A stretch of 64,000 bases of DNA from Patescibacteria group bacterium. GTDB taxonomy: Bacteria; Patescibacteriota; Saccharimonadia; CAILAD01; JADZBC01. Where the stretch lies: positions 14,457-78,456 of the forward strand of contig JBPOIL010000010.1 of assembly GCA_052034495.1 (NCBI GenBank), written 5' to 3'. Below, in pieces: positions 3,563-64,000 of this stretch (the stretch's first letter is position 1; each line of letters begins with the position of its first letter). A model generated the notes under the pieces. It was not told where the DNA came from. It did no database searches and was given only the letters and a program-made list of their open reading frames with translations. The translations under genes and the position numbers were made by a program.

Positions 3563-3703
3563 TAGCTTATTATAGGCTCTCCTGGCGCACTGTGCTAGAT
3601 GATTTATGCATGATTCACCCTCATGTTAGTCTCCATTATAGCACAGCCGTACAATAATTACAAGACTTGTCAAATATAACCATTTTGCCTACCATTAGGT
3701 GGT

Positions 3704-5458: not shown

Positions 5459-5642
5459 CCACGGCGGCAGATCCCTCGTCCGCCAGCTGGCGGATCGGAA
5501 AGACGAATCCGCATATACTAAAAGGCAGCCAGGAAATGTGGCAGCCTTTTATATTCCTCCTAAAACCTTGAGGGTGCTCAAGAGCTTGGGAAGAACAAGG
5601 ACATAGGAGTGGGCTGTGCGGGGGCCCGAAGGCCCCCGCGGG

Positions 5643-5963
5643 TCAGCTGTTGACGATCTTCTTGTGCCGGCGTACATGGCCGCGAGGGGTCTTCCCCAAC
5701 TCATCCTCGTAGCGGCTGCCGCCCGCCCCGACGCCCAACAAGATGTAGATGAGCCAATGGCCCCTGTTGCAGAAGCCCTTGGCTTCGTCGTCGTAGGAGA
5801 ACAAGCAGCTCTTGGTGACGCCGCACTGCGCGCACGTCCCCGAGCCTTCCTTCTCACGCAAGACAGTGCCAGCCTTCTTGTCCGACGTAACCTGGACTCG
5901 GACTGGCTGATCCACTTTCGCCACAATGACCTCCTGGGTCGTATAGATGAATGGGGGCGACAC
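5643..5963 (-). CDS. Small hypothetical protein in a high-GC islet. The likely true start is an internal GTG near 5900 that follows an AGGAGG ribosome-binding site.
   Basis: The ORF lies inside a short high-GC patch. A minus-strand TTGACA-N17-TATAGAAT promoter sits at ~6060-6105. A GC hairpin gcgggggcc-cgaa-ggcccccgc at 5620-5641 follows the stop. No recognizable domain; contains a CxxC pair. Confidence 0.35.
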   Translation of the reverse strand: MSPPFIYTTQEVIVAKVDQPVRVQVTSDKKAGTVLREKEGSGTCAQCGVTKSCLFSYDDEAKGFCNRGHWLIYILLGVGAGGSRYEDELGKTPRGHVRRHKKIVNS

Positions 5964-6110
5964 TGATCCTTAGTCGAAACAAGGTCCAGTAGAGTGCGCT
6001 CTCGTGAGAAGAACGCACATTACCGGACCCTGCTTTCCTATATCCTTGTAATGTACCTTAGCTAGGCTAAAGTTTTACTATTCTATAGTATTTTTACCTT
6101 TTTGTCAATA

Positions 6111-8186
6111 CTAGACTTCGATCACAACGGGCACAACGATTGGGTTTCGTTTGGTCACCTTGTATAAGTGATTTGAAAGCTCATCGCGCATGCGAGTTTT
6201 GATAACCAGCGAGTTGGCTGGCGTAGCTCGATCTCGATGATCGAAAATGTTTTTAACAATCTGGCGTGACTTGTTAATCAGCTCTTCGTTGTCCTTCATA
6301 TACACGAAGCCTCGGGAGATGATATCCGGGCTGGTGGTTAGTCGGCCAGTCTTGCGATCCACCGTAGCGATAGCAGTAAAGATACCATCTGAGCCCATCG
6401 CCTTACGATCGTTAAGCACCACTGCCTGGACGTCGCCGATACCATTACCATCAATCAGTACGATACCGTTCTGAACGATTGGTCCCTTCTTGATCCCCTC
6501 CTTGTCAGCAACAAGCGTCTGACCGTTCTCGATAACGAACACGTGGTCATCATCGAAGCCCTTGCGCTTACCTATTGCCGCATTGTGCACGAGGTGATGA
6601 AGCTCACCGTGGATTGGTAGGTAATACTTAGGTCGTACGAGATCCAGCATTTCTTCTATCTCTTCGGTCCATGCGTGACCAGTGGTGTGCATAATGCCGA
6701 GTCCGTCAAAGTCACGAGTACTCGACTGGTATACATATGCGCCCCAGCGGAATAGGTTGTCTACCATGCCCCAAACAGATTCTTCGTTGCCTGGGATGAT
6801 CGAGGAGCTAAGGATTACAACGTCGTTTTCTTTGAGTTTCACGTCGCGGTGTTCGCCACGGCCCATGCGCTGCAAGGCTGAGAACTCTTCACCCTGTGAA
6901 CCGGTGGTTAGAATCGCGATTTCACCGTCCTGATACTTGTTCATCTCCTGGCCCTTAATGAGCGTTCCTGCCGGAACCTTAATGTATCCAAGCTTCATAG
7001 CAAGCTCTAAGTTGTTTACCATGCTACGACCAAGCACGACGAGCTTGCGCTTTGCCTTCACCGTAGCGTCCACTACGATCTGCATACGAGTCACCTGCGA
7101 TCCAAACGATGCGATGATCGCCCGCTTGTTGTAGTTACGGATCATGATCTCGTCGAGGGTTTCTACAATCCCCTGCTCGGTTGGTGACTTACCAACAACT
7201 TCACAGTTCGTACTGTCACTCATGAGCATCAATACGCCTTCATCACCCAACTCCTTGAGGCGCTCTTTGTTCGAAGGCTTGCCGTCGATTGGGTTCTCTT
7301 CGAATCTCCAGTCGCCCGTGTCGATGATTGTGCCAAGTGGTGTACGAATAGCAAGCGCACAAGCGTCAGGAATTGAGTGGGTTATGCGGATAAACTCTAC
7401 TGAAAACACACCGGCCTGTATGCGCTCACCAGCATCCTGATCTACGATTCGCAGGTCTGGCTTGAATGGAAGCTTGTATTCTTCGAGCTTGCGTTCAATG
7501 AATTTAATGCTGAATTTAGCACCATAAATCGGAGCCGGCATCTTTGGCAGCAAGAATGGTACGCCTCCTACGTGGTCTTCGTGTGCGTGGGTAATAAAGT
7601 GCCCACGGATTTTATGCTTGCGCTCTTCTAGGTAGGTTACGTCTGGCACGATAAGGTCGATGCCTGGCTGGTCATCGCCTGGGAAGGCAAAGCCAAGGTC
7701 CAGTACGATGATATCGTCCTCGTACTCGAGGGCCATGACGTTCTTACCAATCTCACCTAATCCACCGAGGGGGATGATTTTGAGCTTGCCAGCATCAGCC
7801 TTGCTCGTTTGAGCACGTACAACCTTTGAGCCATTGCCGTTTTGGTTAAATGACCCAACTACAAAGTTGGCCTTGCTGTCGCGTCCACGTCGTGGACCGC
7901 CGGGACGACCTCCGCCACCGCCACGGTTGCCCCCAGATCGACCTCCTTGGCCGCCTTGTCCGCCCTGGCCACCTTGACCATTAGGTCGGCCGCCGCGGTT
8001 GCCGCCCGGGCGGTTGTTACTATTACCCTGTCGATTGCCGGTACCTTGTGACTGTGCGGACTTTTGTTCGCCAGTTGGTTGCACTAATGTATCACGCGCA
8101 GGCGTAGCGGACTGGGCGGCTGGCTTGCTGGTCGGCATACCCAAATCGGCTGCGCTTAATGGTCGTGATGATAATTCGTTACTCAT
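6111..8186 (-). CDS. rnj: Ribonuclease J (metallo-beta-lactamase/beta-CASP RNase) with a Gly/Arg/Gln-rich N-terminal extension
   Basis: HAHEDHVGG metallo-beta-lactamase motif with beta-CASP architecture. The first ~130 aa are low-complexity (GGQGGQGGQGGRSGGNRGGGGG). Confidence 0.9.
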   Translation of the reverse strand: MSNELSSRPLSAADLGMPTSKPAAQSATPARDTLVQPTGEQKSAQSQGTGNRQGNSNNRPGGNRGGRPNGQGGQGGQGGQGGRSGGNRGGGGGRPGGPRRGRDSKANFVVGSFNQNGNGSKVVRAQTSKADAGKLKIIPLGGLGEIGKNVMALEYEDDIIVLDLGFAFPGDDQPGIDLIVPDVTYLEERKHKIRGHFITHAHEDHVGGVPFLLPKMPAPIYGAKFSIKFIERKLEEYKLPFKPDLRIVDQDAGERIQAGVFSVEFIRITHSIPDACALAIRTPLGTIIDTGDWRFEENPIDGKPSNKERLKELGDEGVLMLMSDSTNCEVVGKSPTEQGIVETLDEIMIRNYNKRAIIASFGSQVTRMQIVVDATVKAKRKLVVLGRSMVNNLELAMKLGYIKVPAGTLIKGQEMNKYQDGEIAILTTGSQGEEFSALQRMGRGEHRDVKLKENDVVILSSSIIPGNEESVWGMVDNLFRWGAYVYQSSTRDFDGLGIMHTTGHAWTEEIEEMLDLVRPKYYLPIHGELHHLVHNAAIGKRKGFDDDHVFVIENGQTLVADKEGIKKGPIVQNGIVLIDGNGIGDVQAVVLNDRKAMGSDGIFTAIATVDRKTGRLTTSPDIISRGFVYMKDNEELINKSRQIVKNIFDHRDRATPANSLVIKTRMRDELSNHLYKVTKRNPIVVPVVIEV

Positions 8187-8286
8187 GTATTAGAATTTCC
8201 TTTCGTTTCGTTATGAGTTCATTCTGAATGTGGTTCAGAATCCCTGATCTCTAATTCCGCTAGGAGCGAGAGACCCTGAAGTCTAT

Positions 8287-8883
8287 TCACAATGAGGTTT
8301 GTTTAATAATCTCCGGGATGCGAGCAAAGTCTTCGAGGAGTGTTGCCCGCATACTGCCGTTATACAAGGCTGCGGCCGGGTGATACAGCGGCAAGAACCT
8401 CTGGTCTTTGAGTTCTAAGTCTCCAGCCTGCACTGTGTCTTTAATCGCTACACCATGCGCCTCACTAATCTTTAGTTTCGGGAAGAATACATTCATGGAA
8501 TGTCTACCCAGAAACACGACTAGGCGCGGACGAATAACGTGTATCTGCTCTATAAGGTACGGTAAGCAAGCCTTAATCTCTTGTTTACTCGGGTCACGGT
8601 TATCAGGCGGGCGAAACTTCACGATATTGGTTATAAATACTTTCTCGCGGCTCAGGCCAATGCTACCAAGCATCTCGCCCAAAAACTTACCGCTTGCACC
8701 AATAAAGGGTCGTCCTTGCCTATCCTCCTGTGCCCCGGGGGCTTCACCCACAAACATAATGTCTGCTTCTGGGGAACCCTCGCCGGGCACAGGGTTGAGA
8801 CACGTTCTAGCAATTTCTAGATCTAGCTCGCGGCTGCGAATGCGCTTGGCAATCGCCTCTAGCTGATCTGGCTTGCTTACCAT
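8287..8883 (-). CDS. Uracil-DNA glycosylase, family 4
   Basis: GEAPGAQEDRQGRPFIGASGKFL motif, characteristic of family-4 UDGs. Confidence 0.85.
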   Translation of the reverse strand: MVSKPDQLEAIAKRIRSRELDLEIARTCLNPVPGEGSPEADIMFVGEAPGAQEDRQGRPFIGASGKFLGEMLGSIGLSREKVFITNIVKFRPPDNRDPSKQEIKACLPYLIEQIHVIRPRLVVFLGRHSMNVFFPKLKISEAHGVAIKDTVQAGDLELKDQRFLPLYHPAAALYNGSMRATLLEDFARIPEIIKQTSL

Positions 8884-8893
8884 GCCCCTCGGA

Positions 8894-11071
8894 CTAATCC
8901 CTGCCTATTACTTTCTTGCTAAGGTTCAATCTGCCTTGTGAATCGATCTCCACGAGCTTGACGTCAAACTCATCGCCTTCCTTCAGGACAGTGTTAATGT
9001 CCTCCACCCGCTCGTCAGAAATCTGGCTGATGTGCAGCAGGCCGTCTTTGCCAGGCATAATTTCCATGAAGGCGCCGAAGTCCATTACTCGCACGACTTT
9101 TCCCTTATATACTCTGCCGACTTCTGGCTCGGCCACAAGGCTCTCAATCCACTCTTTGGCAGCCCTGGCCGCAGACTCATCGTTTGAAGCGATCATTACG
9201 AGGCCGGTGTCATCAATATCGATCTCCACGCCCGTTTCATCGATAATACGGTTAATCATTTCGCCGCCCTTACCAATAACTTCGCGGATCTTTTCTGGAT
9301 TAATGTTGAGCTTGGTAATGCGCGGTGCATATGGGCTGAGTTCTGGTCGTGGTGCGTCTAGGATCTCGAGTAACTTGCCCATGATGTGCTCACGCCCCTC
9401 GTGCGCTTGGGCTAAGGCATTCTTCATAATCTCTACAGTAATGCCTTTAACCTTAATGTCCATCTGAAGCGCAGTAATACCATCACTCGTTCCGGCAACC
9501 TTGAAATCCATGTCGCCAGCAAAGTCTTCAGTACCCTGAATGTCAGATAATACAATGTACGTACCAGGCTTGTCGTGATCGAGTACAAGACCCATAGCGA
9601 TGCCAGCAACTGGTTTGCGAATAGGAACGCCGGCGTCCATGAGGCTCAACGTAGAACCGCACACACTCGCCATAGATGTGGAGCCGTTCGAGCTCAGAAT
9701 TTCCGACACAACGCGGATGGTGTATGGGAATTCCTCGTGATCAGGCAGAACAGCTAGGAGCGCCTTTTCTGCCAAGTAGCCGTGTCCAATCTCGCGACGG
9801 CCGGCTGAGCGCATTGGCTTGGCCTCGCCCGTGGAGTATGGCGGGAAGTTATAGTGGTGCATGTAGCGCTTCTTGGTGTCTTCTTCCATAGTATCGATAA
9901 GCTGTGCATCGCTGGCTGGGCCTAGAGTCACAACGCTCAATGCCTGAGTACTGCCACGAGTAAATAAGGCGGAGCCGTGCGTACGTGGTAGTAAGCCAGT
10001 GTCGCCACTGATTGGACGAATCTCGGTAGTAGCGCGACCATCAGGTCGAGCGCCATCCTCTAGAATTGCGCGTCGGATCTCCATATCAATTACCTTGCCA
10101 AAAGCAGCCTTCACTTCGGCACGCGGATAGCGATCCTCGTTGGCTTCGTCGGTTGGGTTGTCTTCTAGAAAAGCTAGCTGATCAATCGCGTGCTGGCGGA
10201 GTTCCCCAAGAGATTCATTGCGCAGCTTGGCATCCTTGTGGCGCACGCCATCGCCAAGCTTGCCATCAAGCACCTTGGCTACTTTTTCTATAACTTCGCC
10301 TTCTGGCATGTGAAGGTCGAACTTCTGGGCCTTCACGCCCACAGCGGCAGCCATCTCCTCTTGGAGCTGAATAACCGGCTGCCAGGCTTCCTTGGCCAAA
10401 TCAAGCGCTTCAATGATTACGTCTTCGGCCACTTCGTTAGCTTCAGCCTCGACCATCATGATGGCGTCCTTGGTCCCTGCGACAGTTAGGCTTAATTTGC
10501 TATTCGCTAGCTGCTCAGCTGAAGGATAGGCAATCAACTCATCCCCCGCCATTCCGATGCGGCATGCGCCAACAGGACCGTCAAATGGCGCGCCTGAGAG
10601 CATAAGCGCACTCGAAGCGGCAATGATACTGATGATATCTGGTGTATGCTCTAAATCGGCACTCAATACCACCACGACTACTTGAACGTCGTTACGATAC
10701 CCCTTAGGGAACAGTGGTCGAATTGGTCGATCGATTAATCGACTCGTTAGAATGGCCTGCTCACTTGGGCGGCCTTCGCGCTTCACGAATCTACTGCCAG
10801 AAATCTTGCCAGCAGCATACATGCGCTCTTCGTAATCAACCATTAGGGGGAAGAAGTCGATACCTTCTCGAGGTTCGCTCGATGTCGTAGCTGTAGCCAT
10901 AACTACGGTGTCGCCATAACGCACTGTTACCGCGCCGTCAGCCATAAATGCCAATTTACCTGTCTCAATCGTTAGTTCGCGTCCTGCAAACTGCGTAGTA
11001 AAACGCTGAGTTTTACCACCAAATGGGTGGATTATCTCCATGTGTCTCCTATTCTCCCTTTGTCTTCGCAA
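8894..11071 (-). CDS. pnp: Polynucleotide phosphorylase (PNPase)
   Basis: Two RNase PH domains followed by KH and S1 domains. Sits in the conserved position downstream of rpsO. Confidence 0.95.
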   Translation of the reverse strand: MRRQRENRRHMEIIHPFGGKTQRFTTQFAGRELTIETGKLAFMADGAVTVRYGDTVVMATATTSSEPREGIDFFPLMVDYEERMYAAGKISGSRFVKREGRPSEQAILTSRLIDRPIRPLFPKGYRNDVQVVVVVLSADLEHTPDIISIIAASSALMLSGAPFDGPVGACRIGMAGDELIAYPSAEQLANSKLSLTVAGTKDAIMMVEAEANEVAEDVIIEALDLAKEAWQPVIQLQEEMAAAVGVKAQKFDLHMPEGEVIEKVAKVLDGKLGDGVRHKDAKLRNESLGELRQHAIDQLAFLEDNPTDEANEDRYPRAEVKAAFGKVIDMEIRRAILEDGARPDGRATTEIRPISGDTGLLPRTHGSALFTRGSTQALSVVTLGPASDAQLIDTMEEDTKKRYMHHYNFPPYSTGEAKPMRSAGRREIGHGYLAEKALLAVLPDHEEFPYTIRVVSEILSSNGSTSMASVCGSTLSLMDAGVPIRKPVAGIAMGLVLDHDKPGTYIVLSDIQGTEDFAGDMDFKVAGTSDGITALQMDIKVKGITVEIMKNALAQAHEGREHIMGKLLEILDAPRPELSPYAPRITKLNINPEKIREVIGKGGEMINRIIDETGVEIDIDDTGLVMIASNDESAARAAKEWIESLVAEPEVGRVYKGKVVRVMDFGAFMEIMPGKDGLLHISQISDERVEDINTVLKEGDEFDVKLVEIDSQGRLNLSKKVIGRD

Positions 11072-14566: not shown

Positions 14567-15503
14567 AGTTAGCCTGCTCGTCTTTCCTGCACAGAGCAAT
14601 AATCAGGTCCTGCAATGCGCCGCGGCTATCCTTGTTACCCGACTTAATGCTGTAATCGGCATCAATAATCAGCTTGTAGGCGTGCTTGAGGTCTTCCATC
14701 GCCACTCGCGTAGCAACTCGGCTGGCGTTTTTAGCCGCGTAGGGCGAAATACCAAAGTCCTTCATCCATCCGTCCCCTCGACCCAGGTTGTCGCTAGCAA
14801 GCACGATATTTCTATACTGCCACACTAACATAGCGAGTATCTGCTGATCAGCCACCCCCTGGCGAGTAAGTGCTTTGTACATTTTCATTGCTCGGTCCAA
14901 GTTCTGAGCCACCACTGAATCAGTTAGTTCGAATATAGTCTGCTCTACATTCGGCACCACAAGCTCATCGATTGCTGCTTGCGACACGTTAGGGTCATAA
15001 GCCACGAGCTTGCGGACTTCCTGGACTAATTGCCATTGGTCATTGCCAACCGTGCGAATCAGGTTCATAGCCAAGCCAGGGTTTATGCTCCCGCCCAGCT
15101 TGGTCGCCTCTGCAATCAGCCAATCCCGCAATTGTGGATCACTTAGCTTCTTGAACTCTTTGGCCTGTTTGAGTTTTGAGAGCGTTTTGAAGTATACACT
15201 ACGCCTATCCACCTTGGGTTCTTCTATGAGCATAACGGTCGTATCGGATACTGCAGCTAAGATATCGTCGATACTCTCGGTCGCCTTTTTGTTATCCCCC
15301 AACCCGCGCACGATTATGAATCTGCTCATAGCGAGTAACGGCATCACGGCCAAAGCATCGAGCAAATCAACGGCCTTCTTCTCGCCCATATCAATTACCT
15401 CGAGGTTCAAGTCGCCATCAGACTTTTTAATATAGTGCTGCTTGAGCCGCTCGACTTCCTGTCGCATTGCGTAGCTGTTCTCGCCATAAAAGAATAGAAT
15501 CAT
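14565..15503 (-). CDS. holA: DNA polymerase III delta subunit
   Basis: MILFFYGENSYAMRQEVERLK... matches the HolA N-terminus. Length 312 aa. Confidence 0.8.
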   Translation of the reverse strand: MILFFYGENSYAMRQEVERLKQHYIKKSDGDLNLEVIDMGEKKAVDLLDALAVMPLLAMSRFIIVRGLGDNKKATESIDDILAAVSDTTVMLIEEPKVDRRSVYFKTLSKLKQAKEFKKLSDPQLRDWLIAEATKLGGSINPGLAMNLIRTVGNDQWQLVQEVRKLVAYDPNVSQAAIDELVVPNVEQTIFELTDSVVAQNLDRAMKMYKALTRQGVADQQILAMLVWQYRNIVLASDNLGRGDGWMKDFGISPYAAKNASRVATRVAMEDLKHAYKLIIDADYSIKSGNKDSRGALQDLIIALCRKDEQAN

Positions 15504-15523: not shown

Positions 15524-16006
15524 TCAGGTATAGAGTTTGGCAATCTTCTCAATGATCTGGGTTGTCGACACCTCTTCACTAAAACGAGGAATTGCCACGA
15601 GCTGAGTGCCCTGAGCATTAAGCCACTCTTCGTCTTCGAACCAGGCCGGATGCTCTTGACCAAAGACAAAAAAGTCAGGTTTTAGATCTTTAAGCAGTTT
15701 GTGCCCACGAATGGCAAGGTTCGGGGTGTGGCTCGGGGCAATAAATACATAGTCAACGCCGCCTAGTCCGTCCACAATAGCCGCCCGCTGTTCTTGAGGA
15801 ATTATTGGTCGCTTTTCCCCCTTCCTAGCTCTTGCCCTGTCATCCGGGGTAATGCCAATAACTACAATTTCCCCCTGTGACTTCAAGTGTTTTACTAGGT
15901 CGAGGTGGCCGATATGAAAGAGGTCAAATACACCGCCCGAATATGCGATAGTCTGGCCTTCGTGCTTCTTGCGGATATCTGGAAGGTCTTCTAGCGGTAT
16001 GATCAT
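15524..16006 (-). CDS. Cytidylyltransferase-like nucleotidyltransferase (glycerol-3-phosphate cytidylyltransferase / RfaE domain-II type)
   Basis: HIGH-type nucleotidyltransferase motif GGVFDLFHIGHLDLV. Length 160 aa. Confidence 0.75.
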   Translation of the reverse strand: MIIPLEDLPDIRKKHEGQTIAYSGGVFDLFHIGHLDLVKHLKSQGEIVVIGITPDDRARARKGEKRPIIPQEQRAAIVDGLGGVDYVFIAPSHTPNLAIRGHKLLKDLKPDFFVFGQEHPAWFEDEEWLNAQGTQLVAIPRFSEEVSTTQIIEKIAKLYT

Positions 16007-16030: not shown

Positions 16031-16096
16031 AAATAAAAAAGGACCCTGCCGGCCGGCTCGCCTCCCGAAGGGTTTGAGCCAGCCAACCGAGTCGTC
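16031..16096 (-). repeat. Copy A of a ~65-bp conserved palindromic repeat (terminator-like or attC-like)
   Basis: gaAATAAAAAAGGACCCtGCcGGCCGGCTC-gcctcccgaagggttt-GAGCCaGCCAaCCGAGTCGTCA. Lies immediately 3' of the minus-strand ORF 16095..16487. The stem is imperfect. Confidence 0.7.
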
Positions 16097-16487
16097 AGTG
16101 GCACATGCGAGCATGACGCCTGGCCTCCTTGCGCGAGAAGCCATGCTCCATGTAATACTTGCGCGAGTCTCGCCGACGCCGCGAGCGCTCGAAGTCCTTG
16201 TGGACACCCGGCAAGAGACGCTCCGCCCCCATCTCACTGGAATAGTTCTGGCAAAAGTTAGCCAGGCACCTCAGAGGACTCTTCAGCCTTATGAGCACCA
16301 GTAGCAGTATGAGCACGGTGGCCGCACCACGCCACAACAAGACCAGCTTGAGCACGAACCACAACAGGCCGACGAAGACCAGAAGAGGGCCCATGCTCCA
16401 AGTCACCAAGCTGGCAAGCAAGCAGAAGCCTGCGAGCAAGATGGTAACGAACCCCAACTGCTGCCTCGTCATGGGATCTTGCGGCAA
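16095..16487 (-). CDS. Hypothetical membrane protein: three predicted transmembrane helices and an Arg-rich C-terminal tail. High GC.
   Basis: TTG or internal ATG start (MTRQQLGFVTILLAGF...). Three hydrophobic helices, then ERSRRRRDSRKYYMEHGFSRKEARRHARMCH. Confidence 0.4.
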   Translation of the reverse strand: MPQDPMTRQQLGFVTILLAGFCLLASLVTWSMGPLLVFVGLLWFVLKLVLLWRGAATVLILLLVLIRLKSPLRCLANFCQNYSSEMGAERLLPGVHKDFERSRRRRDSRKYYMEHGFSRKEARRHARMCH

Positions 16488-16947: not shown

Positions 16948-17491
16948 AACAACTACCTCCTTATTGGGTGCGGTGAAAACCGCTAGTATGGGGCTTTCTA
17001 ACCTAGACTTCAAGTCCAAAAACGAAAGAAGCCCCAGCCGGCCCCGCCCTTCCACCCGCCGAAGCGTGGTGGTTGGTACGGGACCGGCCGAAGCCGACGT
17101 GCGGTTGGCATGGCATGCATACTTCCCCGCGGGATGTCGCTGTCGCTGTGAGCTGAAGGCTGTGAGCCGACTGCCGATGGCGATGCGCAGGCTCCTGTGA
17201 CCCTGGGCAGGGGGCCGTAGACACACTCGAGCGCTCGAGTCAGGAGCTTTGCCTGCTCCAACCGTACCTCTAGTTCCCAGCTCTCGCCAAGGAGATTCGG
17301 CCTGCCTACGTATCAACCTACGTGGTGATCCGTGGATCTTTCCACTCCACCGTTCTGCGCAAGGCATCGGGTTTGGGGTCAATTCTCGTCTTTCCGAGCC
17401 GGCAACGGTCTCTCCCGTTCGTTTTTTAGATAGAAGGGGTTACGATCCCCACGTGATGGCGTCCGGCTTTTTGTTTTGCGGGACAAAAAAT

Positions 17492-17519
17492 ATTATACCA
17501 AACTTACCCAATGTGTCAA
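17492..17519 (-). promoter_or_regulatory. Consensus sigma-70 promoter (TTGACA-N16-TATAAT) reading toward RHH paralog A
   Basis: The minus strand reads TTGACAcattgggtaagtttggTATAAT, immediately downstream of repeat copy C. A ~500-nt high-GC leader follows. Confidence 0.6.
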
Positions 17520-17527
17520 TAGGGCGA

Positions 17528-17593
17528 GAATAAAAAGGACCCCGCTGGCCGGCTCGCCTCCCGGAGGATTTGAGCCAGCCAGCCGAGTCGCCA
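17528..17593 (-). repeat. Copy C of the ~65-bp palindromic repeat
   Basis: GAGAATAAAAAGGACCCC-GCTGGCCGGCTC-gcctcccggaggattt-GAGCCaGCCAGC-CGAGTCGCCA. Lies immediately 3' of ORF 17620..17868. Confidence 0.75.
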
Positions 17594-17619: not shown

Positions 17620-17868
17620 CTACAGCAAGACATGAACGCGTTCAGTCGAACCATCTGCCCTACGGATAAATAGCTCACCGCCCTTGTCTTTCACCTCCTC
17701 CAGGTACCATAGGTACATCTTCATCGCATCATTGGTCAAGGCGGCAAGAGATCTTTCCATATCTGTCGACCGCTCTCTCAGCCTGGTGGCCGTAGCCGGA
17801 TTGAGACTCAGTGACATCTTCACAGCCGGCACCGCATCAGTCCTGGGCATTGCGCACCTACCTTGCAT
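17620..17868 (-). CDS. Ribbon-helix-helix-like small protein, paralog B
   Basis: ...KMSLSLNPATATRLRERSTDMERSLAALTNDAMKMYLWYLEE...FIRRADGSTERVHVLL shows the beta-strand/helix/helix pattern of CopG/Arc-type folds. The C-terminal RADG(S)TER motif is shared with paralog A. An upstream promoter TTGAAA-N17-TATAGT lies at ~17880-17915. Confidence 0.5.
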   Translation of the reverse strand: MQGRCAMPRTDAVPAVKMSLSLNPATATRLRERSTDMERSLAALTNDAMKMYLWYLEEVKDKGGELFIRRADGSTERVHVLL

Positions 17869-44510: not shown

Positions 44511-45281
44511 TTATGGGCGCAACGTACCAAAGAACACTTGCCAGGCGAGTGCTGATTTGGCAACTAGGCTAAGAATTATATACACGCGCTCACCATACAG
44601 GTAGTCCTTCCATTTTCCAACTTGCTTGTACTGCAGGAACATATTGATCGCAAAGATGTTAAAGAAGGCAAAGATCGAAACGTAAATCCAGTAAACAAAA
44701 GCGGGGATGTTGCCACTGCCGTAGGTGTTGCTCGCCCAGAATGAAGTAGCAACGATTATCCATGGAACTATGCCGGCAATACAACCAACGACGAAACTAA
44801 CCCACTTAGTCTTTTCTGTAGTCTGATTGTGAATCTCCATCACCAAGCCCATCAGATTCATGACCGCGACAAGCGCAAATATACCGATTAAAAGCGAGAG
44901 GTCGTATATGCCGACCAGGAGCGAAATAGCCACCATCATGGTGCTAGCAGATAACGAGTATTCGATCCAGCGAGCTCGGTTGATACCTTTGCCAAGGTCC
45001 TTGTTATAACGCTTATTGTAAACCGTAGCGATTATCAGGTGCGCCAATGATGACATTACCAGGAACGCAACCACGAGGTATGCTAGCGGGACATCAAAGA
45101 GGGTCTTTGTAGCAGACTCTAAGTTTTGAGTCTGCCGGTTGAAAGATAGGAAGCTCGTGGTAACAGGCAGTAAAAACTCTTTGCTCAAGAGCAAGATAGC
45201 CAAGGCCTGGACCGCGTGCAACGCAGCCATTTTAAAGTTAAATGATCTCAGCCCTGCTTTCGTAATCTTTTTTCGAGCCAC
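44511..45281 (-). CDS. Heliorhodopsin
   Basis: Seven transmembrane helices. Strong similarity to heliorhodopsin 48C12 in RWIEYSLSASTM, VGCIAGIVPW and YLYGERVYIILSLVAKSALAWQVFFGTL. The retinal Schiff-base Lys in LVAKSA is present. Confidence 0.85.
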   Translation of the reverse strand: MARKKITKAGLRSFNFKMAALHAVQALAILLLSKEFLLPVTTSFLSFNRQTQNLESATKTLFDVPLAYLVVAFLVMSSLAHLIIATVYNKRYNKDLGKGINRARWIEYSLSASTMMVAISLLVGIYDLSLLIGIFALVAVMNLMGLVMEIHNQTTEKTKWVSFVVGCIAGIVPWIIVATSFWASNTYGSGNIPAFVYWIYVSIFAFFNIFAINMFLQYKQVGKWKDYLYGERVYIILSLVAKSALAWQVFFGTLRP

Positions 45282-45776
45282 TTCGTAATCTCCTTATTTA
45301 GGATGATTATAGCATAACGCCTATGCTAGCGGTTGCACGTAGTGTTCTATACCATACTGTTAGGCCGGCCATGAAAGGAGTCGAGTTGCCGAATAGGATA
45401 GCCAAGCGGCACCTGGTGCCAACTCACGACAGTCCGCGAACGTGGTGTCAAATGGGATCAGGCCACGTTCACACAACTGAAAGCCCATCTGGGGCAACAT
45501 GCAACGGGTGTCTCAAGGCGTATTGGAGGACGGTAGTACCAGATCCAGCTGTCATTACAGACCTGCTGCTAGCACTCCACCCCAACAACTCAGACCCCAT
45601 GACCTCGTGCCAGCGTGTGCTCTACCAAGTACTAACTGGTCACAAGCTCCCAAATGCCTGAACTCACATCGACGTGGGTTCAGGCATTTCCCTTTATCTA
45701 CTTTTTTGTTTCAGTTTATCGCAGTGTTTCCTTGTAAATTACCTATTTAACAGATTGTATTTAGTGCCAATAAGCA

Positions 45777-45805
45777 TTGACAAAATACTAAATTTGTGCT
45801 AATAT
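45777..45805 (+). promoter_or_regulatory. Consensus sigma-70 promoter TTGACA-N17-TAATAT for the high-GC operon
   Basis: TTGACA at 45777-45782, a 17-nt spacer, TAATAT at 45800-45805. AAGGAG lies 7 nt before the TTG start at 45873. Confidence 0.65.
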
Positions 45806-45872
45806 TCTTGGGTTACCTGGCTTCGAACCAGGAGCACATCACATCCAAGAAGCATACCAAGGAGAAGGTGCC

Positions 45873-46502
45873 TTGCAGGCAACCGACCAGTCCACATCCA
45901 CCTCGCGAGCACTCGTGCTCGCCGACAAGATCCTGCCGGCCATCATGGACCCGGCGCAGTTCCCGCAGATCGCGGGCGGCAAGTCCCAGACCGACAAGAT
46001 CAACCTCGCGCGCGACGTGGCCGACATCGTCGTTCGTCGCAACGCCGACGAGAGCCAGGACGAGGGCTTCGCCCTCACCCTGGTGACCACCATGGACGAG
46101 TTCCCCAAGAAGGCTTCCAAGGCTGCCGTCAGCCTGCTGCTCGACACGGGGATGAGCTCGATGGAGGTGCACGGGGCGATGAAGTTCGCCACGGAGCTGG
46201 ACGTCAGCCTGGACTTCGCCATCACGTGGATGAAGTACTGGGACGTCACCCTGTCCGACGAGGACGAGGTGTCAGCCTGTGCGGACTCCACCATCGAGCT
46301 GCTCAACGCGCAGCCGCGCGGCGTCGGGATCAACGCCCAGGGCAAGCTCCAGGGCGGGACCCGTCCGCGGAACCCGCACTCGGTCCCCGACCCGGGGCAG
46401 AGCCAGGACCGCGAGCAGATCCTGCTCACGGCCCGCCAGCTCGGCGAAGACCTCAACAAGAGGACCCTCGACGAGCTGGTCGACCACTTCGGTGGCTCCT
46501 GA
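45873..46502 (+). CDS. Hypothetical protein (high GC), first gene of a two-gene operon
   Basis: TTG start with a good ribosome-binding site. 209 aa, no recognizable domain. Its stop overlaps the next start (TGATG). Confidence 0.5.
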   Translation: MQATDQSTSTSRALVLADKILPAIMDPAQFPQIAGGKSQTDKINLARDVADIVVRRNADESQDEGFALTLVTTMDEFPKKASKAAVSLLLDTGMSSMEVHGAMKFATELDVSLDFAITWMKYWDVTLSDEDEVSACADSTIELLNAQPRGVGINAQGKLQGGTRPRNPHSVPDPGQSQDREQILLTARQLGEDLNKRTLDELVDHFGGS

Positions 46503-47431
46503 TGGCTCGCCTACAGAACCCCTTCTTGACCCTCGGGCTCACCCCCGCAGTGGTCAAGAAGGCCAAGTTCGAAGGCGCCATCGCCATCGCCAAGGTCATG
46601 TACCTGCAGAACAGTCGCCTTCACCACCCCGACACGGGCGGTGACAGGCGGCTGTTCGAGGCCGTGGCCGAGGCGTGGGAGCTACTCAACGGCGAGATGG
46701 CACAGGCCTTCTACGACGAGTACGTCTCGTCGCAGGCCGCCAAGCGGGCAGAGTCAGCAGCCCAGCTCCGCCTCGAACATGAGGCCGAGCTGAAGCAGTG
46801 GCGGGACGCCCTCGAGCGCACGCTCGAAGCGCCCCACCGTCAAGGAAACGTGTTCAACCCCACGGCAGGCCTTCGGGTCCTGCTGAGGGGCAAGCACTCC
46901 TTCCTGGAGCTGACGTTCGAGGGCGGCAAGCTGGCAGTACACACGCATGACCAGCTAGACCAAGAAGAGATGCCCTCCACTGTCAAGGGAGGCATGTCGG
47001 CCTACTACTACTCCAACGGGGAAACCCTGAAGAGTCATGGTGGAATCGACGGTGACGGCAAGGAGCTGGAAGCCGACGAGGGCCCAACCGACCTTCGGGA
47101 AGGATGGTACCAAATCGGACCAGTCACGGACGAAGGGACCAATCTCTACTCCCCGCTGGAGCCTTCGGGCAGAAAGCAGGAGAAGGACGTCTCGCCGTTC
47201 GTGCTGATCAGGGGCCACGCCACACGGGTCGCAGCCGACATCGGTCGGCAGCGTAGGCTCTCGGCAGGCGAGGACGATGCGTCCATCGCCGGCATCGAGG
47301 TCTCAAGTCTCGTGAGCAACCCTCAGCTCCTCAGCTTCGAGTGGAAGGAGGGCGCAGCCCTACTGGCCATCACACCGGGCCAAAGGATCGACATCCTCGG
47401 CACGGTGGTTGGCATCTACGCGCCGACCTGA
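46502..47431 (+). CDS. J-domain (DnaJ-like, HPD motif) protein with a ~240-aa C-terminal domain of unknown function
   Basis: MARLQNPFLTLGLTPAVVKKAKFEGAIAIAKVMYLQNSRLHHPDTGGDRRLFEAVAEAWELL has helix II, the HPD loop and helix III spacing of a J domain. The table ORF starting at 46226 overlaps the upstream gene and is an over-extension. Confidence 0.6.
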   Translation: MARLQNPFLTLGLTPAVVKKAKFEGAIAIAKVMYLQNSRLHHPDTGGDRRLFEAVAEAWELLNGEMAQAFYDEYVSSQAAKRAESAAQLRLEHEAELKQWRDALERTLEAPHRQGNVFNPTAGLRVLLRGKHSFLELTFEGGKLAVHTHDQLDQEEMPSTVKGGMSAYYYSNGETLKSHGGIDGDGKELEADEGPTDLREGWYQIGPVTDEGTNLYSPLEPSGRKQEKDVSPFVLIRGHATRVAADIGRQRRLSAGEDDASIAGIEVSSLVSNPQLLSFEWKEGAALLAITPGQRIDILGTVVGIYAPT

Positions 47432-47463
47432 GCTGAGCTCTCATGCTTCCTGGGATGTGATTC

Positions 47464-47541
47464 CCGGGGACGCCCCTAAAAAGGCGTCCCCGGTTTCCCA
47501 AGCAATTATCTAAAAACCACCTCAAACACGAGGTGGTTTTT
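47464..47541. terminator. Tandem hairpins ending the high-GC operon
   Basis: A GC hairpin ccggggacgcc-cctaaaaag-ggcgtccccgg (47464-47493) is followed by the bidirectional terminator aaaaaccacctc-aaacac-gaggtggttttt (47512-47541). Confidence 0.75.
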
Positions 47542-47567
47542 GCTTCATAAGATATTAAATACCTAGC

Positions 47568-47909
47568 TTAACAACGCTCATCGCCCCATACACTTAAATC
47601 TTTAATCACTTTGTGAAGCGAGCGGCCCTTTTCGGTAAGAGTGTACTCAACCTTAGGTGGCACTTCGGCATACACCTTCTTCGTTATAATCTTATCCTGT
47701 TCAAGCTGCTGTAGGCGCAAGGCCAGCGTACGAGGACTAAGGCCTAAATCATCCTGCAATTCCCCGAAGCGCTTAGTGCCATCAAACAAACTATACAGAA
47801 TCATAAGCGCCCATTTGCTGCCAATTATCTTGAGAGTCTTGGCAAGACCGCAGTTAACATAGTCTTTCTTTTGCTCTGGTTTGGCTGATTTTTGGGTTGC
47901 TTTCATAGC
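47568..47909 (-). CDS. HxlR-family winged-helix transcriptional regulator
   Basis: CGLAKTLKIIGSKWALMILYSLFDGTKRFGELQ is the HxlR/MarR-like HTH. Divergent from the FMN reductase gene. Confidence 0.8.
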   Translation of the reverse strand, partial: AMKATQKSAKPEQKKDYVNCGLAKTLKIIGSKWALMILYSLFDGTKRFGELQDDLGLSPRTLALRLQQLEQDKIITKKVYAEVPPKVEYTLTEKGRSLHKVIKDLSVWGDERC

Positions 47910-48018
47910 CGAATTATAACACAAAACTATAGCATGATACTATACTGTTTGTAACTGCTTTACATTGTATAGTTATTACTATAGACTTTATACTATATAA
48001 AATATAGTAAGGAGAAAT

Positions 48019-51364: not shown

Positions 51365-51550
51365 CCCGAATAGGAGAAGGCCCAGAGTCGAAACCCTGGG
51401 CCTTATTCACCCTCCTTCGATGCAGGTCTATGACCCGCTCAGATAGCCGTCGCTCGGCTAGCACACTATTCCCTTGTGCTAGGGTCGCTGCCATTATGTT
51501 GCCTGGCTGCAGCGAGGTGATTCTTCCGAATCTACCACGGGCCAAAGCCC

Positions 51551-51868
51551 TCAGAAGCGGCTGCTGCACTCCTTGGGGAGCATCAACACGTCGCCCTTGC
51601 TGAACTGCTCCTTGCCGTAGACCTCACTGCGCTGGATGATCAGCCGGCGCCACGCCTGGAGCGACTCGCGCCCCGGCTTGGTCGTCTTGGCGAACTCGTC
51701 CATCGTCAGCGGCGTCTGCAGCGTCACTGCCGCTTCGCAGCCGTAGCGGTCGTTCAGCGACTGGCCGTTGAGTGAGTGGCTCACGCCACCGCAGCCGGCC
51801 AGCACGAAGACGAGGAGGATTGCCGCAGTAACCGCGCGGCGCCGATGAGTGGTGATGTGTGTGTTCAT
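51551..51868 (-). CDS. LysM-like small lipoprotein, paralog 1 (high GC)
   Basis: Signal peptide with lipobox LAGC. C-terminal ...WRRLIIQRSEVYGKEQFSKGDVLMLPKEC resembles the end of a LysM motif. Paralogous to 57370..57678. Confidence 0.5.
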   Translation of the reverse strand: MNTHITTHRRRAVTAAILLVFVLAGCGGVSHSLNGQSLNDRYGCEAAVTLQTPLTMDEFAKTTKPGRESLQAWRRLIIQRSEVYGKEQFSKGDVLMLPKECSSRF

Positions 51869-53462
51869 CTCGCTACTGGCATTACCAGCAATGAGATGAA
51901 CACAACGCTCAACCGAATTTCAACTCCTGTTTCGCCATAACTTGGCTCATCGGTGCAGATCACTATCTGCAGACAGGGTCCCTCCAAGGAGCACGTCCTG
52001 CTCCCTGTAGGGATTTACGCATTGCCCGATCGGGCTTGAAGGCCACTTCGCGCTGGCCTGCTCTCTTTTTGTGGTCATGAGCTAGACCGTTGCGGTGCCT
52101 AGAAGGCTTCTTTTTCTCGCCAACTATACTTCTGTTGTCAGGCCGTCGCTACGGCCCCGAAGCTCCTACCGGCGGCGGCGTGGGTTCGGCGGACCGAACG
52201 CCTCGTCGTAGCTGATGGGGTCCCCCTTGAGGTCTTCCGGATCCTCATCCGTCTCCCAGCGCCCAAACAGGACATTGCGAGGATCGAACGATGCACCTTC
52301 ATGCTCTTCTGAACTACGTGGCATAACCGCCCCTTGCTACGGAGTTGCGATTCAACTCCCCGACGGGAGGCACCCGCCTCTTACCTCCGGCTGGGGAGTT
52401 GAATTGTTAAAGTCTGTAAAAGTTCTCTGATAGTTTCGTCATTTCTGACTCATCAGCTCGGACATACATCCGAGGACTATCTACTCACGAACCCTTAACG
52501 GGCTCGCGAGCGACCCTGGGGAGCCTCTGCACGACAGCGCAAAGTCTACAACCCAGGTAAGGTTTGCCTAGCTTCACTCGACCGAGTGACCTAGAGCGGC
52601 TTACCTTCTGCCGCGGCGTGATTGCGTTCGCCTTAGAGGGCATACCGGTTTTCAGGCCGTGTATGTCCGGGGTAGCGAAACGCACTTTTAGCTAGTGGAG
52701 TTAACCCCGGATCACTTGTTGGTCTCCCACCACTCTCGTGGTCGCGCGTCCCGCTTGGGACTACACGTCGGGGTTTGTACCCGCAGGCTGATCCAATCTC
52801 CTCTCCTGTGCATACCCCTTTCTCCGCGCCGCGGAGGGTTTGGACGGGCCGCCCTCATCGCTCGATCGCGACATGCACTTTACTAGCATCGAACTGTGGC
52901 TGTGATTGGCGGGGATGCTTCCGCGCAATCACTTTGCTAAGGTCTATCCAGGTAAGCTGCGGGTAGCAACCTTACTGGACTCCTTGGCTTCTAGGTACTA
53001 CGTAGCTCTGGGAGGATCTGGTACCTCAACCGGAGCCGGGGTTGTCATGGCCGTGCTTTCGCTCGGCGCCCCTATTCCCTAAGGGCACGTGCCATACGCG
53101 CCCACTTTCGTCCACAATCCTCGCTCGCATAGGCTGGCAAGGAAACTCCCGAAGGAGCGCTGTCCGTGAACATTTGTTGGCCTCAACAGCCAGGGTGCTG
53201 GCGTCCTGTCATGCTTGGTGTAAATATTTACAGAACCCAGCGCCTTGACTGTCGATAACCTTTGACGTTTATTTTTTGAAGTTCTACGCGCTCTTCAGCT
53301 GCACTGTCGAGAATATTACACGGTTGTTTATTTTTTGTCAATACTTTTTGTCACTATATTGCAAACATTATGCAATATTATCTTGATCTAACCTGTAAAA
53401 TACTGTTGAACTTTCCAAACACTTAAGCATAAGCCTGTTGGGTACTTGTAGGTTTTTGTAAC

Positions 53463-57369: not shown

Positions 57370-57678
57370 TTGAAGACCACGACCACCCACCCCCGTAAGC
57401 GCTGGCTCGCCACCGCAGCCCTGACCCTGGCCGCCCTACTCGGCGCCCTAGGACTCAGCAGCTGCGCAGAGAGCACGCGAGACGCCTACGCCTGCAACAC
57501 CGAGGTGACGATCGACTACACCAAGCCGGTCAAGCTCAGCGACTTCGCGCAGGACACGGACCCGCGGGGCAACTGGCGAGAGTGGAAGCAGCTCCTCATC
57601 GAGCGCAACCACCTCTACGCGGACACCCTGAAGCCCGGGCAGAAGGTCAAGCTGCCTCAGGCCTGCAAGAAGGTCTGA
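57370..57678 (+). CDS. LysM-like small lipoprotein, paralog 2 (high GC)
   Basis: TTG start after AAGGAGAG. Lipobox LSSC. C-terminal WREWKQLLIERNHLYADTLKPGQKVKLPQAC is homologous to paralog 1. Confidence 0.5.
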   Translation: MKTTTTHPRKRWLATAALTLAALLGALGLSSCAESTRDAYACNTEVTIDYTKPVKLSDFAQDTDPRGNWREWKQLLIERNHLYADTLKPGQKVKLPQACKKV

Positions 57679-57807
57679 GGGGAGGAGCACAAAGGTAAAC
57701 GGGGCGGTACCTACAAACCCGCCCCCTGACTCGGAGAGTAACGCGCTCTCCCTGACGATGACCGCGCACGGTCGAAAGTCAGCACCGCACCCCACAAGGA
57801 GCAAACA

Positions 57808-58050
57808 ATGCCAGACTATGAAGCAGAAGCCAGGGCTGCTGAGCTCGAAGGAAGAGCTGAAGCAGCCCGCATCAGAGCGCGCGGCTATGAACAGCAAGCT
57901 GCCTACGCGCGCGGAGACCATCTGCGTGAAGCCACTCGCAGGCGCGAGGAGCAAGCACACATCCAGCGCGAGGTAGCTGCCGGACGTATGTGCCCTGGCG
58001 GCTGCGACACCTACTCCGGCGGATGCCGCATCCACGCCGACTCCTGCTAG
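57808..58050 (+). CDS. Small Cys-rich hypothetical protein (80 aa, high GC)
   Basis: A ribosome-binding site AAGGAGCAAAC precedes the ATG. Helical Arg/Glu-rich N-terminus. C-terminal CPGGCDTYSGGCRIHADSC. Confidence 0.4.
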   Translation: MPDYEAEARAAELEGRAEAARIRARGYEQQAAYARGDHLREATRRREEQAHIQREVAAGRMCPGGCDTYSGGCRIHADSC

Positions 58051-62520: not shown

Positions 62521-64000
62521 CTAGTTGCCGCTAGCCGATGCCGTTCGTCGACTGCGCTCTTCAGCGCTGAGCTGCGACAGCTCGTCGATGGTCGCATCGA
62601 TCTGAGCCTGCAGCTCGGCATCCGTGAGGGCCGAGAGCTCCTCGTCGGACTCACCGGGCGTGGGGGTCTCCCCCGGCACAGCCAGTTCGTCCTCGGTGCC
62701 ATCGATCAGCACGCGACCAATCTCGCCACCGTTGAGCTCCACCGCCTGATCGAGCTGACCAGGTCGGATGCGGAGCAGGTAACGGGGCTGGCCGGACTGC
62801 GTGGCGAACACCACCCAGTTGCCATCCTCGCCCGGGATGAACTCCTCCAATCGACCCTTTTGCCCCTCGTTGAGGAACGCGGGGTCGAGCTTGCGGAGGA
62901 TGTCCCTGGCGCGCCGTTCCAGATCTTGCTCGGTGAGGGCGTTGCCGTCCTCGTCTCCGTGCACCTGGACTCGAATCGTGTTCAGCTGGCCGTACGTGAC
63001 GGTGTCGCTGGGAACGAAGCTGACGGCCTGGATGACCTGGCTGCGGGTGCCCTTGGCGGTGAGCGGCGTCACGAAGTACATCCGCCCATCCTCCTGGCTC
63101 CGCAGGTTGTAGTCGGCAGGGTTCTCGGCATTCGCATCGATGTTTACCGGCTCGAAGCCGAAGGCATCGTTGCTGTACCACTTGCGCCCAGCAGCCCAGT
63201 TGACCATCTCGCGCTGCTTGGTAGCGACGCTGATGGGGTACACCGGGCCAGGAATCTCACCCGACTTCACCGAACGCTTGTACTCGATGGCCGGCGAGCC
63301 GGACTCCGAGCCACGCACCACGATGACGCCCGCAGGCACCTCAATGCTGCGTGAACCGTTCCACCGGTCGGTCTTGACCGGGATCACGATCACGGGGTTG
63401 TCATGGGTGTCGCAGTAGCCATAGACGTCGCTGAGACCCCAGTACACGTTGGCGCTCACCTGCTCCCGGATACGATCCGAGAGGCTGTTGGCGTACTCGC
63501 CCGTGATGGCCGCGTCGAGGCGGTTCTTGCCCTCGAAGCGACACTGGTGGACCTTCTCGGCGTCACCATTCCACTCGACGATGCTGTCGATGTGGATGCG
63601 CTTGCCTTCGCCGTCGCGGATGGCCGTCCACTTGCCCTTGCCTTCTCGATCTGAGATGTAGGCGTAGGTGTCGTCCAAGATGTCAGCCTTGGATGATCCA
63701 GTGGCGCGCTCGCTCATGATCCGTTGGGCGCCAGCCAGCGAGGCAGGGCGCTCTTCGAAACCACTTGCGAGGTACTCCGTGGGCTTGCCGGCCACGATCT
63801 TGGCCGGACCGACGTCGTGTCCACCCTCGAGCAACCGAGCCAGGATGCGCGGAGGCGCGTCCTTGTCAGCGTACTCGATCGAGACCGAACGCACAAACGG
63901 CGCGGCCTCGAGCTTGGAATCTGTTCCTGTGGGGAAACTCGCGGGCATAGTCATCAGGATGAAGCACACGCAAGCGACCACGGCTGTCGCCGTGATCAGC
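62521..64000 (-). CDS. Secreted or membrane-anchored hypothetical protein (high GC), probably 5'-truncated by the window edge
   Basis: Long high-GC ORF with a hydrophobic N-terminus (TATAVVACVCFILMTMPASFP), an acidic C-terminus and no recognizable domain. The opposite-strand ORF 62422..63354 is a compositional artefact. Confidence 0.5.
   Translation of the reverse strand, partial: LITATAVVACVCFILMTMPASFPTGTDSKLEAAPFVRSVSIEYADKDAPPRILARLLEGGHDVGPAKIVAGKPTEYLASGFEERPASLAGAQRIMSERATGSSKADILDDTYAYISDREGKGKWTAIRDGEGKRIHIDSIVEWNGDAEKVHQCRFEGKNRLDAAITGEYANSLSDRIREQVSANVYWGLSDVYGYCDTHDNPVIVIPVKTDRWNGSRSIEVPAGVIVVRGSESGSPAIEYKRSVKSGEIPGPVYPISVATKQREMVNWAAGRKWYSNDAFGFEPVNIDANAENPADYNLRSQEDGRMYFVTPLTAKGTRSQVIQAVSFVPSDTVTYGQLNTIRVQVHGDEDGNALTEQDLERRARDILRKLDPAFLNEGQKGRLEEFIPGEDGNWVVFATQSGQPRYLLRIRPGQLDQAVELNGGEIGRVLIDGTEDELAVPGETPTPGESDEELSALTDAELQAQIDATIDELSQLSAEERSRRTASASGN

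Follow-up and report, generated by a model that had tools for sequence, protein, structure and literature searches.

A GC-rich two-gene operon in a Saccharibacteria-type genome encodes a class C J-domain protein and a member of a divergent, predicted helical partner family

We analyzed a 64,000-nucleotide (nt) stretch of DNA, referred to here as the window, from a Patescibacteria group bacterium (GTDB lineage Bacteria; Patescibacteriota; Saccharimonadia; CAILAD01; JADZBC01). The window corresponds to positions 14,457 to 78,456 of the forward strand of contig JBPOIL010000010.1 (NCBI GenBank assembly GCA_052034495.1). It contains a compact cassette of two open reading frames (ORFs), of which the second encodes a J-domain protein. 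ORF1 (window positions 45873-46502, +; 209 amino acids [aa]) was called with a TTG start, and ORF2 (46502-47431, +; 309 aa) was called with an ATG start. The two ORFs overlap by 1 base, the A of the ORF1 stop codon TGA being the A of the ORF2 ATG (i.e., TGATG). The TTG start of ORF1 was backed by a ribosome-binding site (AAGGAG; 45859-45864, +), which lies 8 nt upstream and was kept in an alignment of four diverged lineages (i.e., the window and the related loci L001, L006, and L007), and by two orthologous loci in which this position holds an ATG.

A sigma-70-type promoter precedes the pair (45777-45805, +). It consists of the -35 hexamer TTGACA (45777-45782), a 17-nt spacer with an extended -10 TG, and the -10 hexamer TAATAT (45800-45805). 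In a consensus scan that returned 6 promoter-like sites in 3.2 kb versus 1.5 expected, this site had 10 of 12 matches plus the TG, and both hexamers were kept in L001, L006, and L007. The sequence of the 5' untranslated region was conserved as well; it includes a stem-loop (CCTGG-CTTCGAA-CCAGG; 45816-45832, +), whose stem letters differed in L001 and L006, yet pairing was possible. Downstream of the ORF2 stop codon, an RNA fold of positions 47432-47552 revealed a GC-rich 11-bp hairpin (GGGGACGCC...GGCGTCCCC; 47464-47493, +) and an intrinsic terminator without an assigned strand (47511-47547; A-run, stem CCACCUC/GAGGUGG, and U-run). With both hairpins together, these 121 nt folded at -54 kcal/mol (z = -7.1), which was matched by none of 200 shuffles. 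The terminator is located between the pair and a convergent HxlR gene (47568-47924, -), and judging from this sequence arrangement, it could serve both in the two directions. The pair is a self-contained, translationally coupled operon.

The composition of the cassette set it apart from its surroundings. Its GC content was 0.60 to 0.72 in every 200-nt interval over positions 45800-47450 and 0.40 to 0.50 on either side, and the value for ORF1 and ORF2 together was 0.648 (versus 0.511 in the rest of the window). The GC content at third codon positions (GC3) was 0.93 for ORF1 and 0.80 for ORF2; the remaining long ORFs in the window had values of 0.44 to 0.62, with few GC3-rich exceptions. An earlier note on this DNA, made from the letters alone, had described TGATG coupling, a TTGACA-N17-TAATAT promoter, a GC hairpin followed by a canonical terminator, and deviant GC content and codon usage in what would be a compositionally foreign unit. 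Each of these points was borne out, by the ORF coordinates, the hexamers conserved across lineages, the fold, and the GC and GC3 values, respectively.

The GC3-rich exceptions were four ORFs on the minus strand (16095-16487, 0.78; 51551-51868, 0.89; 62521-63981, 0.82; and 57448-58035, 0.67), compared with a genome GC3 of approximately 0.54. None of the four had a significant Pfam match, and the 105-aa ORF among them has a lipoprotein-like N terminus. These ORFs may share the origin or process behind the GC-rich cassette.

The N-terminal region of ORF2 (residues 1-76; 46502-46729, +) was identified as a J domain from family-level sequence matches and a predicted fold. In the PDB, a profile of the ORF2 family (described below) retrieved J domains exclusively (CbpA, 1.2e-7; DnaJ; Sis1; and DNAJB1). 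Pfam DnaJ was matched by 19 of 24 family members at an E value of ≤0.01 (best, 1.9e-8), and the top PDB sequence matches of ORF2 itself were J domains throughout, aligned over helix II-HPD-helix III. Residues N6, P7, F8, G12, H42, P43, D44, G47, and A58 were invariant in 35 aligned family sequences. In a structure predicted with AlphaFold2 from a 24-sequence family alignment, ORF2 adopts the J fold of four helices, in which helices II and III form an antiparallel hairpin, and H42-P43-D44 sits between predicted helices 15-40 and 49-62. Because of the family profile, the Pfam matches in 19 of 24 members, and the invariant HPD, we regard the presence of a J domain in ORF2, as seen in its sequence and modeled fold, as established. 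Such a domain would be expected to stimulate an Hsp70. By its sequence features, ORF2 is a class C (type III) J-domain protein.

The J domain is followed by a predicted long helix (residues 78-112; 46733-46837, +) and a predicted beta-rich C-terminal domain (residues ~116-309; 46847-47428, +). The helix, of approximately 35 residues, would form a coiled-coil stalk. The stalk helix and the C-terminal domain matched no described family in Pfam, NCBIfam, or fold searches, and a search of BFVD returned nothing at an E value of ≤0.001. The region from residues ~116-150 onward was common only to partner-bearing J proteins. Outside the J domain, the family alignment had no invariant column, save a near-invariant L287, and no conserved polar residue. 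Because no polar residue is invariant, a binding role is more probable for the C-terminal domain than a catalytic one. Sequence prediction indicated that ORF1 and ORF2 are acidic, soluble proteins that lack transmembrane segments and signal peptides.

Several assignments of ORF2 to known J-protein types were considered and rejected. A class A or B DnaJ/CbpA was discarded on account of the lack of cysteine in ORF2 and of any Pfam match over the DnaJ C-terminal or zinc finger domains, and a full-length DnaJ/CbpA was discarded given that the NCBIfam matches covered residues 30-110 only, with 14 to 16 bits (cutoffs, 377 to 403). With regard to HscB, the ORF2 C terminus was predicted to be beta-rich, and TIGR00714 was matched in only one relative (E value, 0.038), below the cutoff. 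A multistretch match of ORF2 residues 255-307 to the PKD/Ig-repeat protein P0025 was too weak for use.

ORF1 is an acidic (pI 4.6), soluble, predicted helical protein with the core motif LLDTGMSSMEVHGAMKFATEL...DEDEV. In single-sequence scans, it had no match in Pfam, PHROGs, PADLOC, or NCBIfam. It was nonetheless homologous to the proteins encoded immediately upstream of distant J proteins at L010 (BLASTP, 7e-17) and L015 (8e-14) and, by iteration, at L067 and L094. Iterative searches joined other upstream partners into one family of 15 to 16 sequences and never recruited the PNP and QueC controls. The ORF1-type partners and a group of larger partners were colinear over 158 columns (hhalign, P = 6e-5, versus P ≥ 0.31 in 30 column-shuffled controls), and their common core resembles LLxxGhSxxEh...DEDE. 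The partner alignment contained no invariant column. In the PDB, the partner profile matched designed helical-repeat proteins only; we take this to denote helical hairpins, with no word on function. By alignment and profile comparison, the partners are one divergent helical family.

We delineated the J-protein family by searching 1.84 billion cluster representatives exhaustively with HMMER (E value, ≤0.001); this yielded 30 proteins, mostly of 280 to 375 aa. A third word-indexed protein search contributed a single further protein. They share the layout NPFxxLG...(Y)...HPDxGG...F....EA(Y/W)E.L, followed by a helical segment and the C-terminal end YL(V/I)......RF..LG.I, and the J-domain motifs were invariant across the family at approximately 20% identity. 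Close orthologs (77 to 99% identity) of ORF1 and ORF2 formed four clusters each among 5.8 billion proteins and were adjacent every time. Five of the distant J proteins (P0009, P0011, P0014, P0018, and P0031) had a same-strand gene of 180 to 189 aa upstream that overlapped or abutted the J-protein start; such a gene was also there for P0010, cut by the contig end. We also searched metagenomes with a degenerate DNA pattern (NPF...G...HPDxGG), which gave 78 loci, and the J proteins from these loci that matched the family hidden Markov model (HMM) over the full length again had an acidic partner upstream. Every full-length-matching family member that was looked up and for which upstream DNA was available had an upstream partner on the same strand, of approximately 125 to 290 aa, overlapping or abutting the J-protein start. 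The window pair combines a full-length HMM match with an ORF1-family partner, as do the pairs at L001, L006, L007, L010, L015, L067, and L094.

This family is not covered by any model in Pfam, NCBIfam, PHROGs, or PADLOC, and a literature search found no paper on a partner-plus-J-protein family. Public annotations of its members read "hypothetical protein" or "curved DNA-binding protein CbpA"; the latter label is wrong. The earlier note had read an N-terminal J domain with an HPD motif in the second protein, and although the single-sequence match was weak, this reading was confirmed at the family level by profile searches, which retrieved only J domains from the PDB, and by the predicted fold. 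Its statement that ORF1 and the ORF2 C-terminal domain belong to no recognizable family held in the family, PDB, and fold searches. It had further supposed an orphan J-domain protein, which did not stand: the pair is a member of a small, widely scattered family from Saccharibacteria-like genomes and a few other uncultivated lineages, and homologs of ORF1 and ORF2 always co-occurred.

A sister branch of J proteins (L019, L016, and approximately 40 further pattern loci; 270 to 300 aa) has only the N-terminal part and the extreme C terminus in common with this family, with the motifs NPF...HPDxGG at the N terminus and YL...LEG.I at the C terminus.

On the basis of these sequence data, we consider it moderately probable that the pair is a two-protein Hsp70 co-chaperone module, in which a class C J protein recruits the cell's DnaK either to the partner protein or to a client bound by that partner. 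As part of the same explanation, and with the same moderate confidence, ORF1 would be the obligate, fast-evolving, acidic helical partner of the J protein. ORF2, possibly as a dimer formed via the 35-residue helix, would bind ORF1 or an ORF1-held client through its C-terminal region. The J domain would then dock on the cell's own DnaK in the ATP-bound state and trigger ATP hydrolysis, and a specific protein would thereby be loaded onto DnaK for remodeling or assembly.

The contexts of the relatives that could be read were, from their gene content and order, Saccharibacteria-like chromosomes and one archaeal-type contig. A near-identical locus (95% protein identity) was present on a contig of an uncultured "Candidatus Saccharibacteria" bacterium. 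Housekeeping genes (e.g., those for RNase J, PNPase, and FtsK) at L015 and L018 were 57 to 73% identical to those of the window. The three closest clades occupied the same broad chromosomal neighborhood as the window, and L010, L094, and the window have in common the larger arrangement MgsA - DNA-alkylation repair - ... - pair - ... - PGI. The archaeal-type gene order rpoH-rpoB-rpoA was seen with the Tara Oceans loci L009 and L077. Outside the window's own clade, the exhaustive HMMER search detected no relative closer than 27% identity.

These contexts bear on another reading, in which the pair derives from a phage or from the high-GC actinobacterial host and works by hijacking a chaperone; a mobile-element or phage-derived hijacker had been among the candidate roles in the earlier note. 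The GC3 of 0.8 to 0.93 resembles the codon usage of Actinomycetota, and phages do encode J proteins, as seen in matches to two Brevundimonas phages (E value, 1e-3; J domain only) and to phrog_14336 (E value, 4e-4; residues 31-80 only). However, an IMG/VR scan with the NPF...HPDxGG DNA pattern yielded no relatives, and in a tblastn search of phage and plasmid records, the matches reflected generic J similarity, being confined to the J-domain region or nonsignificant, and those of ORF1 were nonsignificant. The word-indexed search of 5.8 billion proteins and the exhaustive HMMER search, the latter with its 30 relatives, turned up only four close homologs, all on Saccharibacteria-type contigs. The nearest distant relatives lay in chromosomes syntenic with the window, and no phage genes were present near the pair in the window. 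We therefore consider this origin very improbable. Of the neighborhood survey that the note had proposed, co-occurrence of the two genes was found, and phage, plasmid, or Actinomycetota relatives were not.

Comparison with L001 delimited a block at positions 45772-47509, from promoter to terminator, with 86% DNA identity, compared with 73 to 77% in the coding flanks. The left edge of the homology block was located at 45772-45775 (L001 and L006), and the right edge was located at 47509 (L001). Synonymous divergence (dS; NG86) was 0.18 for ORF1 and 0.47 for ORF2, and it was 1.2 to >2.9 for the flanks. After correction for base composition, fourfold sites of the pair were at 27 to 64% of saturation versus 65 to 102% for the flanks. 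The gene content around the cassette varied. At L001, an extra CMAS-type methyltransferase gene follows the pair; at L007, SelR precedes it; and at L006, the DNA before the pair (3166-8957) encodes an IS1595-family transposase, a Replic_Relax gene product, and a 1,261-aa surface-like protein with a faint YadA-head match. The upstream sequence of L006 thus bears signs of a mobile element beside the cassette. Because of the identity block, the fourfold sites, the GC anomaly, and the varying flanking gene content, these sequence comparisons indicate that the synonymous sites of the cassette are younger than those of its flanks and that the cassette was laterally exchanged from promoter to terminator after the host lineages split.

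Although ORF1 and ORF2 lie on one transcript, their fourfold-site divergence between the window and L001 was 15% and 30%, respectively. The L007 contig (1-3354; 3.35 kb) opens within a gene for a CMAS-like methyltransferase, and its other end is the cassette terminator, after which L001 has that same gene. The contig ends look wrapped around, which might reflect a small circular element, a duplicated region, or an effect of assembly. More distant family members had a GC content like that of their surroundings. The GC3 excess may stem from repeated exchange with GC-biased conversion, from an unsampled high-GC donor, or from constraint on synonymous sites. Overlapping or antisense ORFs were rejected as a cause of such constraint, since equally long alternative-frame ORFs appeared in 14 to 52% of synonymous-codon shuffles.

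The ratio of nonsynonymous to synonymous divergence (dN/dS) was 0.3 to 0.65 for ORF1, 0.15 to 0.23 for ORF2 (0.38 in the closest pair), and 0.02 to 0.10 for the flanks; the pair is under purifying selection. A foreign composition and the lack of an annotated function might suggest that the pair is a decaying or nonfunctional remnant of horizontal transfer. With dN/dS values below 1, both frames intact in five lineages, the promoter, ribosome-binding site, coupling geometry, and terminators conserved, and the J-domain motifs invariant in the family, we give this idea hardly any credence.

The same signature of lateral exchange would also fit a conflict module (i.e., toxin-antitoxin-like, antiphage defense, or counterdefense) that uses or blocks DnaK. 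The compact, overlapping two-gene layout, the variable immediate context with the IS1595 and Replic_Relax neighbors at L006, the relatively high dN/dS of ORF1, and the sparse spread (30 among the 1.84 billion cluster representatives) are all in keeping with such a role. PADLOC, however, gave no match at an E value of ≤1 for either protein of the pair or for the upstream ORF, and neither a toxin nor a nuclease domain was found. Outside the J domain, the family has no conserved polar position. The neighbors were ordinary genes rather than defense islands; for example, the L097 pair adjoins a ribosomal protein operon, and the L015 pair lies between the genes for RNase J and an aquaporin. A conflict module therefore appears rather unlikely.

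Returning to the co-chaperone module and its lateral exchange, several points weigh against them. ORF2 alone matched Pfam DnaJ (PF00226) below the threshold (E value, 0.021; 15.3 bits; cutoff, 27.8). We infer the binding of ORF1 to ORF2, the recruitment of DnaK, and the biological role from sequence. No Hsp70 motifs were found in the window or at any related locus examined, and the presence of DnaK in this genome is assumed, as for Saccharibacteria generally. In the sister branch, the J-protein start overlaps an unrelated gene, namely, that of a PNP_UDP_1-type phosphorylase (32 loci) or queC (10 loci). Start/stop overlap alone is therefore no proof of a functional link; a co-varying partner family, in contrast to overlap, is what we count as sequence-based proof of partnership. 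As for exchange, the pair occupies one and the same locus (SelR-pair-peptidase M3) in L010 and L094, with flanks that are 62 to 79% identical but pair proteins that are only 33 to 39% identical. The GC3 of these pairs (L010, 7459-8906; L094, 7459-8942) was 0.69 to 0.82 versus 0.36 to 0.56 in the flanks. Both observations complicate the picture of a simple recent import. Long residence combined with fast evolution would account for this pattern no less well than lateral exchange, and the raised GC3 of the cassette persists in three Saccharibacteria sublineages.

A wider scenario can be drawn, which we regard as speculative and improbable. Saccharibacteria are episymbionts of high-GC Actinomycetota. 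The cassette might be a previously unrecognized two-component system that depends on Hsp70 and belongs to episymbiotic microbes with reduced genomes (Saccharibacteria, other lineages like those of the candidate phyla radiation [CPR], and some archaea), in which the variable partner would set the target and the J protein would commandeer Hsp70, possibly that of the host after delivery. Its swapping from promoter to terminator, with GC-biased conversion or a high-GC donor, would keep the GC3 at 0.8 to 0.93.

The surroundings of the pair in the window comprise, upstream, a heliorhodopsin gene (44511-45281, -; Pfam E value, 9e-99) next to a gene for a DUF5684 membrane protein and, downstream, genes for HxlR, an FMN reductase, and two TldD/PmbA proteins. 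Between the heliorhodopsin gene and the cassette promoter lies a 112-aa ORF (45323-45661, +) without a family match, which closes with a 16-bp terminator-like hairpin (45652-45689). This ORF was found at the related locus L008 (72% DNA identity) and was absent from L001 and L006.

Farther downstream, an ORF-poor stretch contains a match to the type III hammerhead ribozyme (RF00008; 52428-52482, -; 43.5 bits; E value, 1.2e-7), just below the gathering score. A second hammerhead-like copy (51926-51978, -) follows approximately 450 nt further on the minus strand, with CCGAUGA in place of CUGAUGA. L008 likewise has two hammerheads (15421-15476 and 15925-15979, -; 42.4 and 41.3 bits). L001 has a single one (17681-17735), approximately 90 nt 5' of a transfer-messenger RNA (tmRNA) gene (17224-17590, -; 102 bits); neither the window nor L008 had a detectable tmRNA, whether here or in any other part of the sequence searched. 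The hammerhead and the hairpin that follows it were conserved in the window, L001, and L008. The surrounding region of approximately 2 kb (51368-53355) has a GC content of 0.56 to 0.57 and no convincing long ORF, and three of its segments were 84 to 86% identical to L001 (versus 73 to 77% in neighboring protein genes). This suggests, from sequence conservation, that the region is conserved noncoding RNA around a hammerhead/tmRNA locus.

J-domain proteins determine the substrates of Hsp70, and class C members with client domains of unknown kind are where new Hsp70 biology tends to turn up. Saccharibacteria have very small proteomes, so any gene that they keep or exchange probably matters. Lateral exchange at the level of cassettes, and anomalies at synonymous sites, could also be studied cleanly in CPR genomes with this example. 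Should the pair merely serve one client as a niche co-chaperone, the wider impact would be modest.

Among known systems, J effectors and viral J proteins that hijack the Hsp70 of a host (e.g., HopI1 of Pseudomonas syringae and phage J proteins) also combine a J domain with a lineage-specific domain on laterally moving DNA. Unlike those proteins, the present pair has no secretion signal and no phage context, and family members also occur in ordinary-GC lineages and on an archaeal-type contig. The short HPDxGG loop of ORF2 recalls the HPDKGG loop in the J domains of Tim14(Pam18)-Tim16(Pam16) and polyomavirus T antigens. This likeness is limited to the J domain: in contrast to Tim14/Tim16, the pair lacks a membrane anchor and any relation to the import motor, with no J-like fold shown for ORF1.

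Escherichia coli CbpA-CbpM is a parallel in layout, being an overlapping two-gene operon of a J protein and a small dedicated partner, and the CbpA J domain was the best sequence match. By analogy with CbpM and CbpA, or Tim16 and Tim14, ORF1 could be a regulator of the J protein that binds the J domain or the stalk and gates DnaK access, and the true client would be something other than ORF1 that the ORF2 C-terminal domain recognizes. We consider this unlikely, although less so than the other alternatives above. The gene order is reversed relative to cbpAM, with the partner upstream rather than downstream, and the partner, at 180 to 290 aa, is 2 to 3 times the size of CbpM (~100 aa). It has no detectable similarity to CbpM or MerR; comparison of 13 partners with Pfam gave only isolated, insignificant MerR matches in single members (MerR_1, 0.021; MerR-DNA-bind, 0.17). 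The Tim14/Tim16 matches concern the J domain of ORF2, not ORF1. ORF2 also differs from CbpA in that it lacks the C-terminal client-binding domains of CbpA/DnaJ.

The preferred reading, a co-chaperone module that would direct DnaK to a partner or client, places ORF2 with the class C J-domain proteins (e.g., E. coli DjlB/DjlC and HscB). As in those proteins, an N-terminal J domain, whose helices II and III are connected by the HPD loop, is joined to a remainder unlike DnaJ, and the presumed role would be the same, i.e., directing Hsp70 to a particular client or site. Unlike the known members of this class, the ORF2 family has an invariant N-terminal NPF motif and a dedicated, cotranscribed partner gene.

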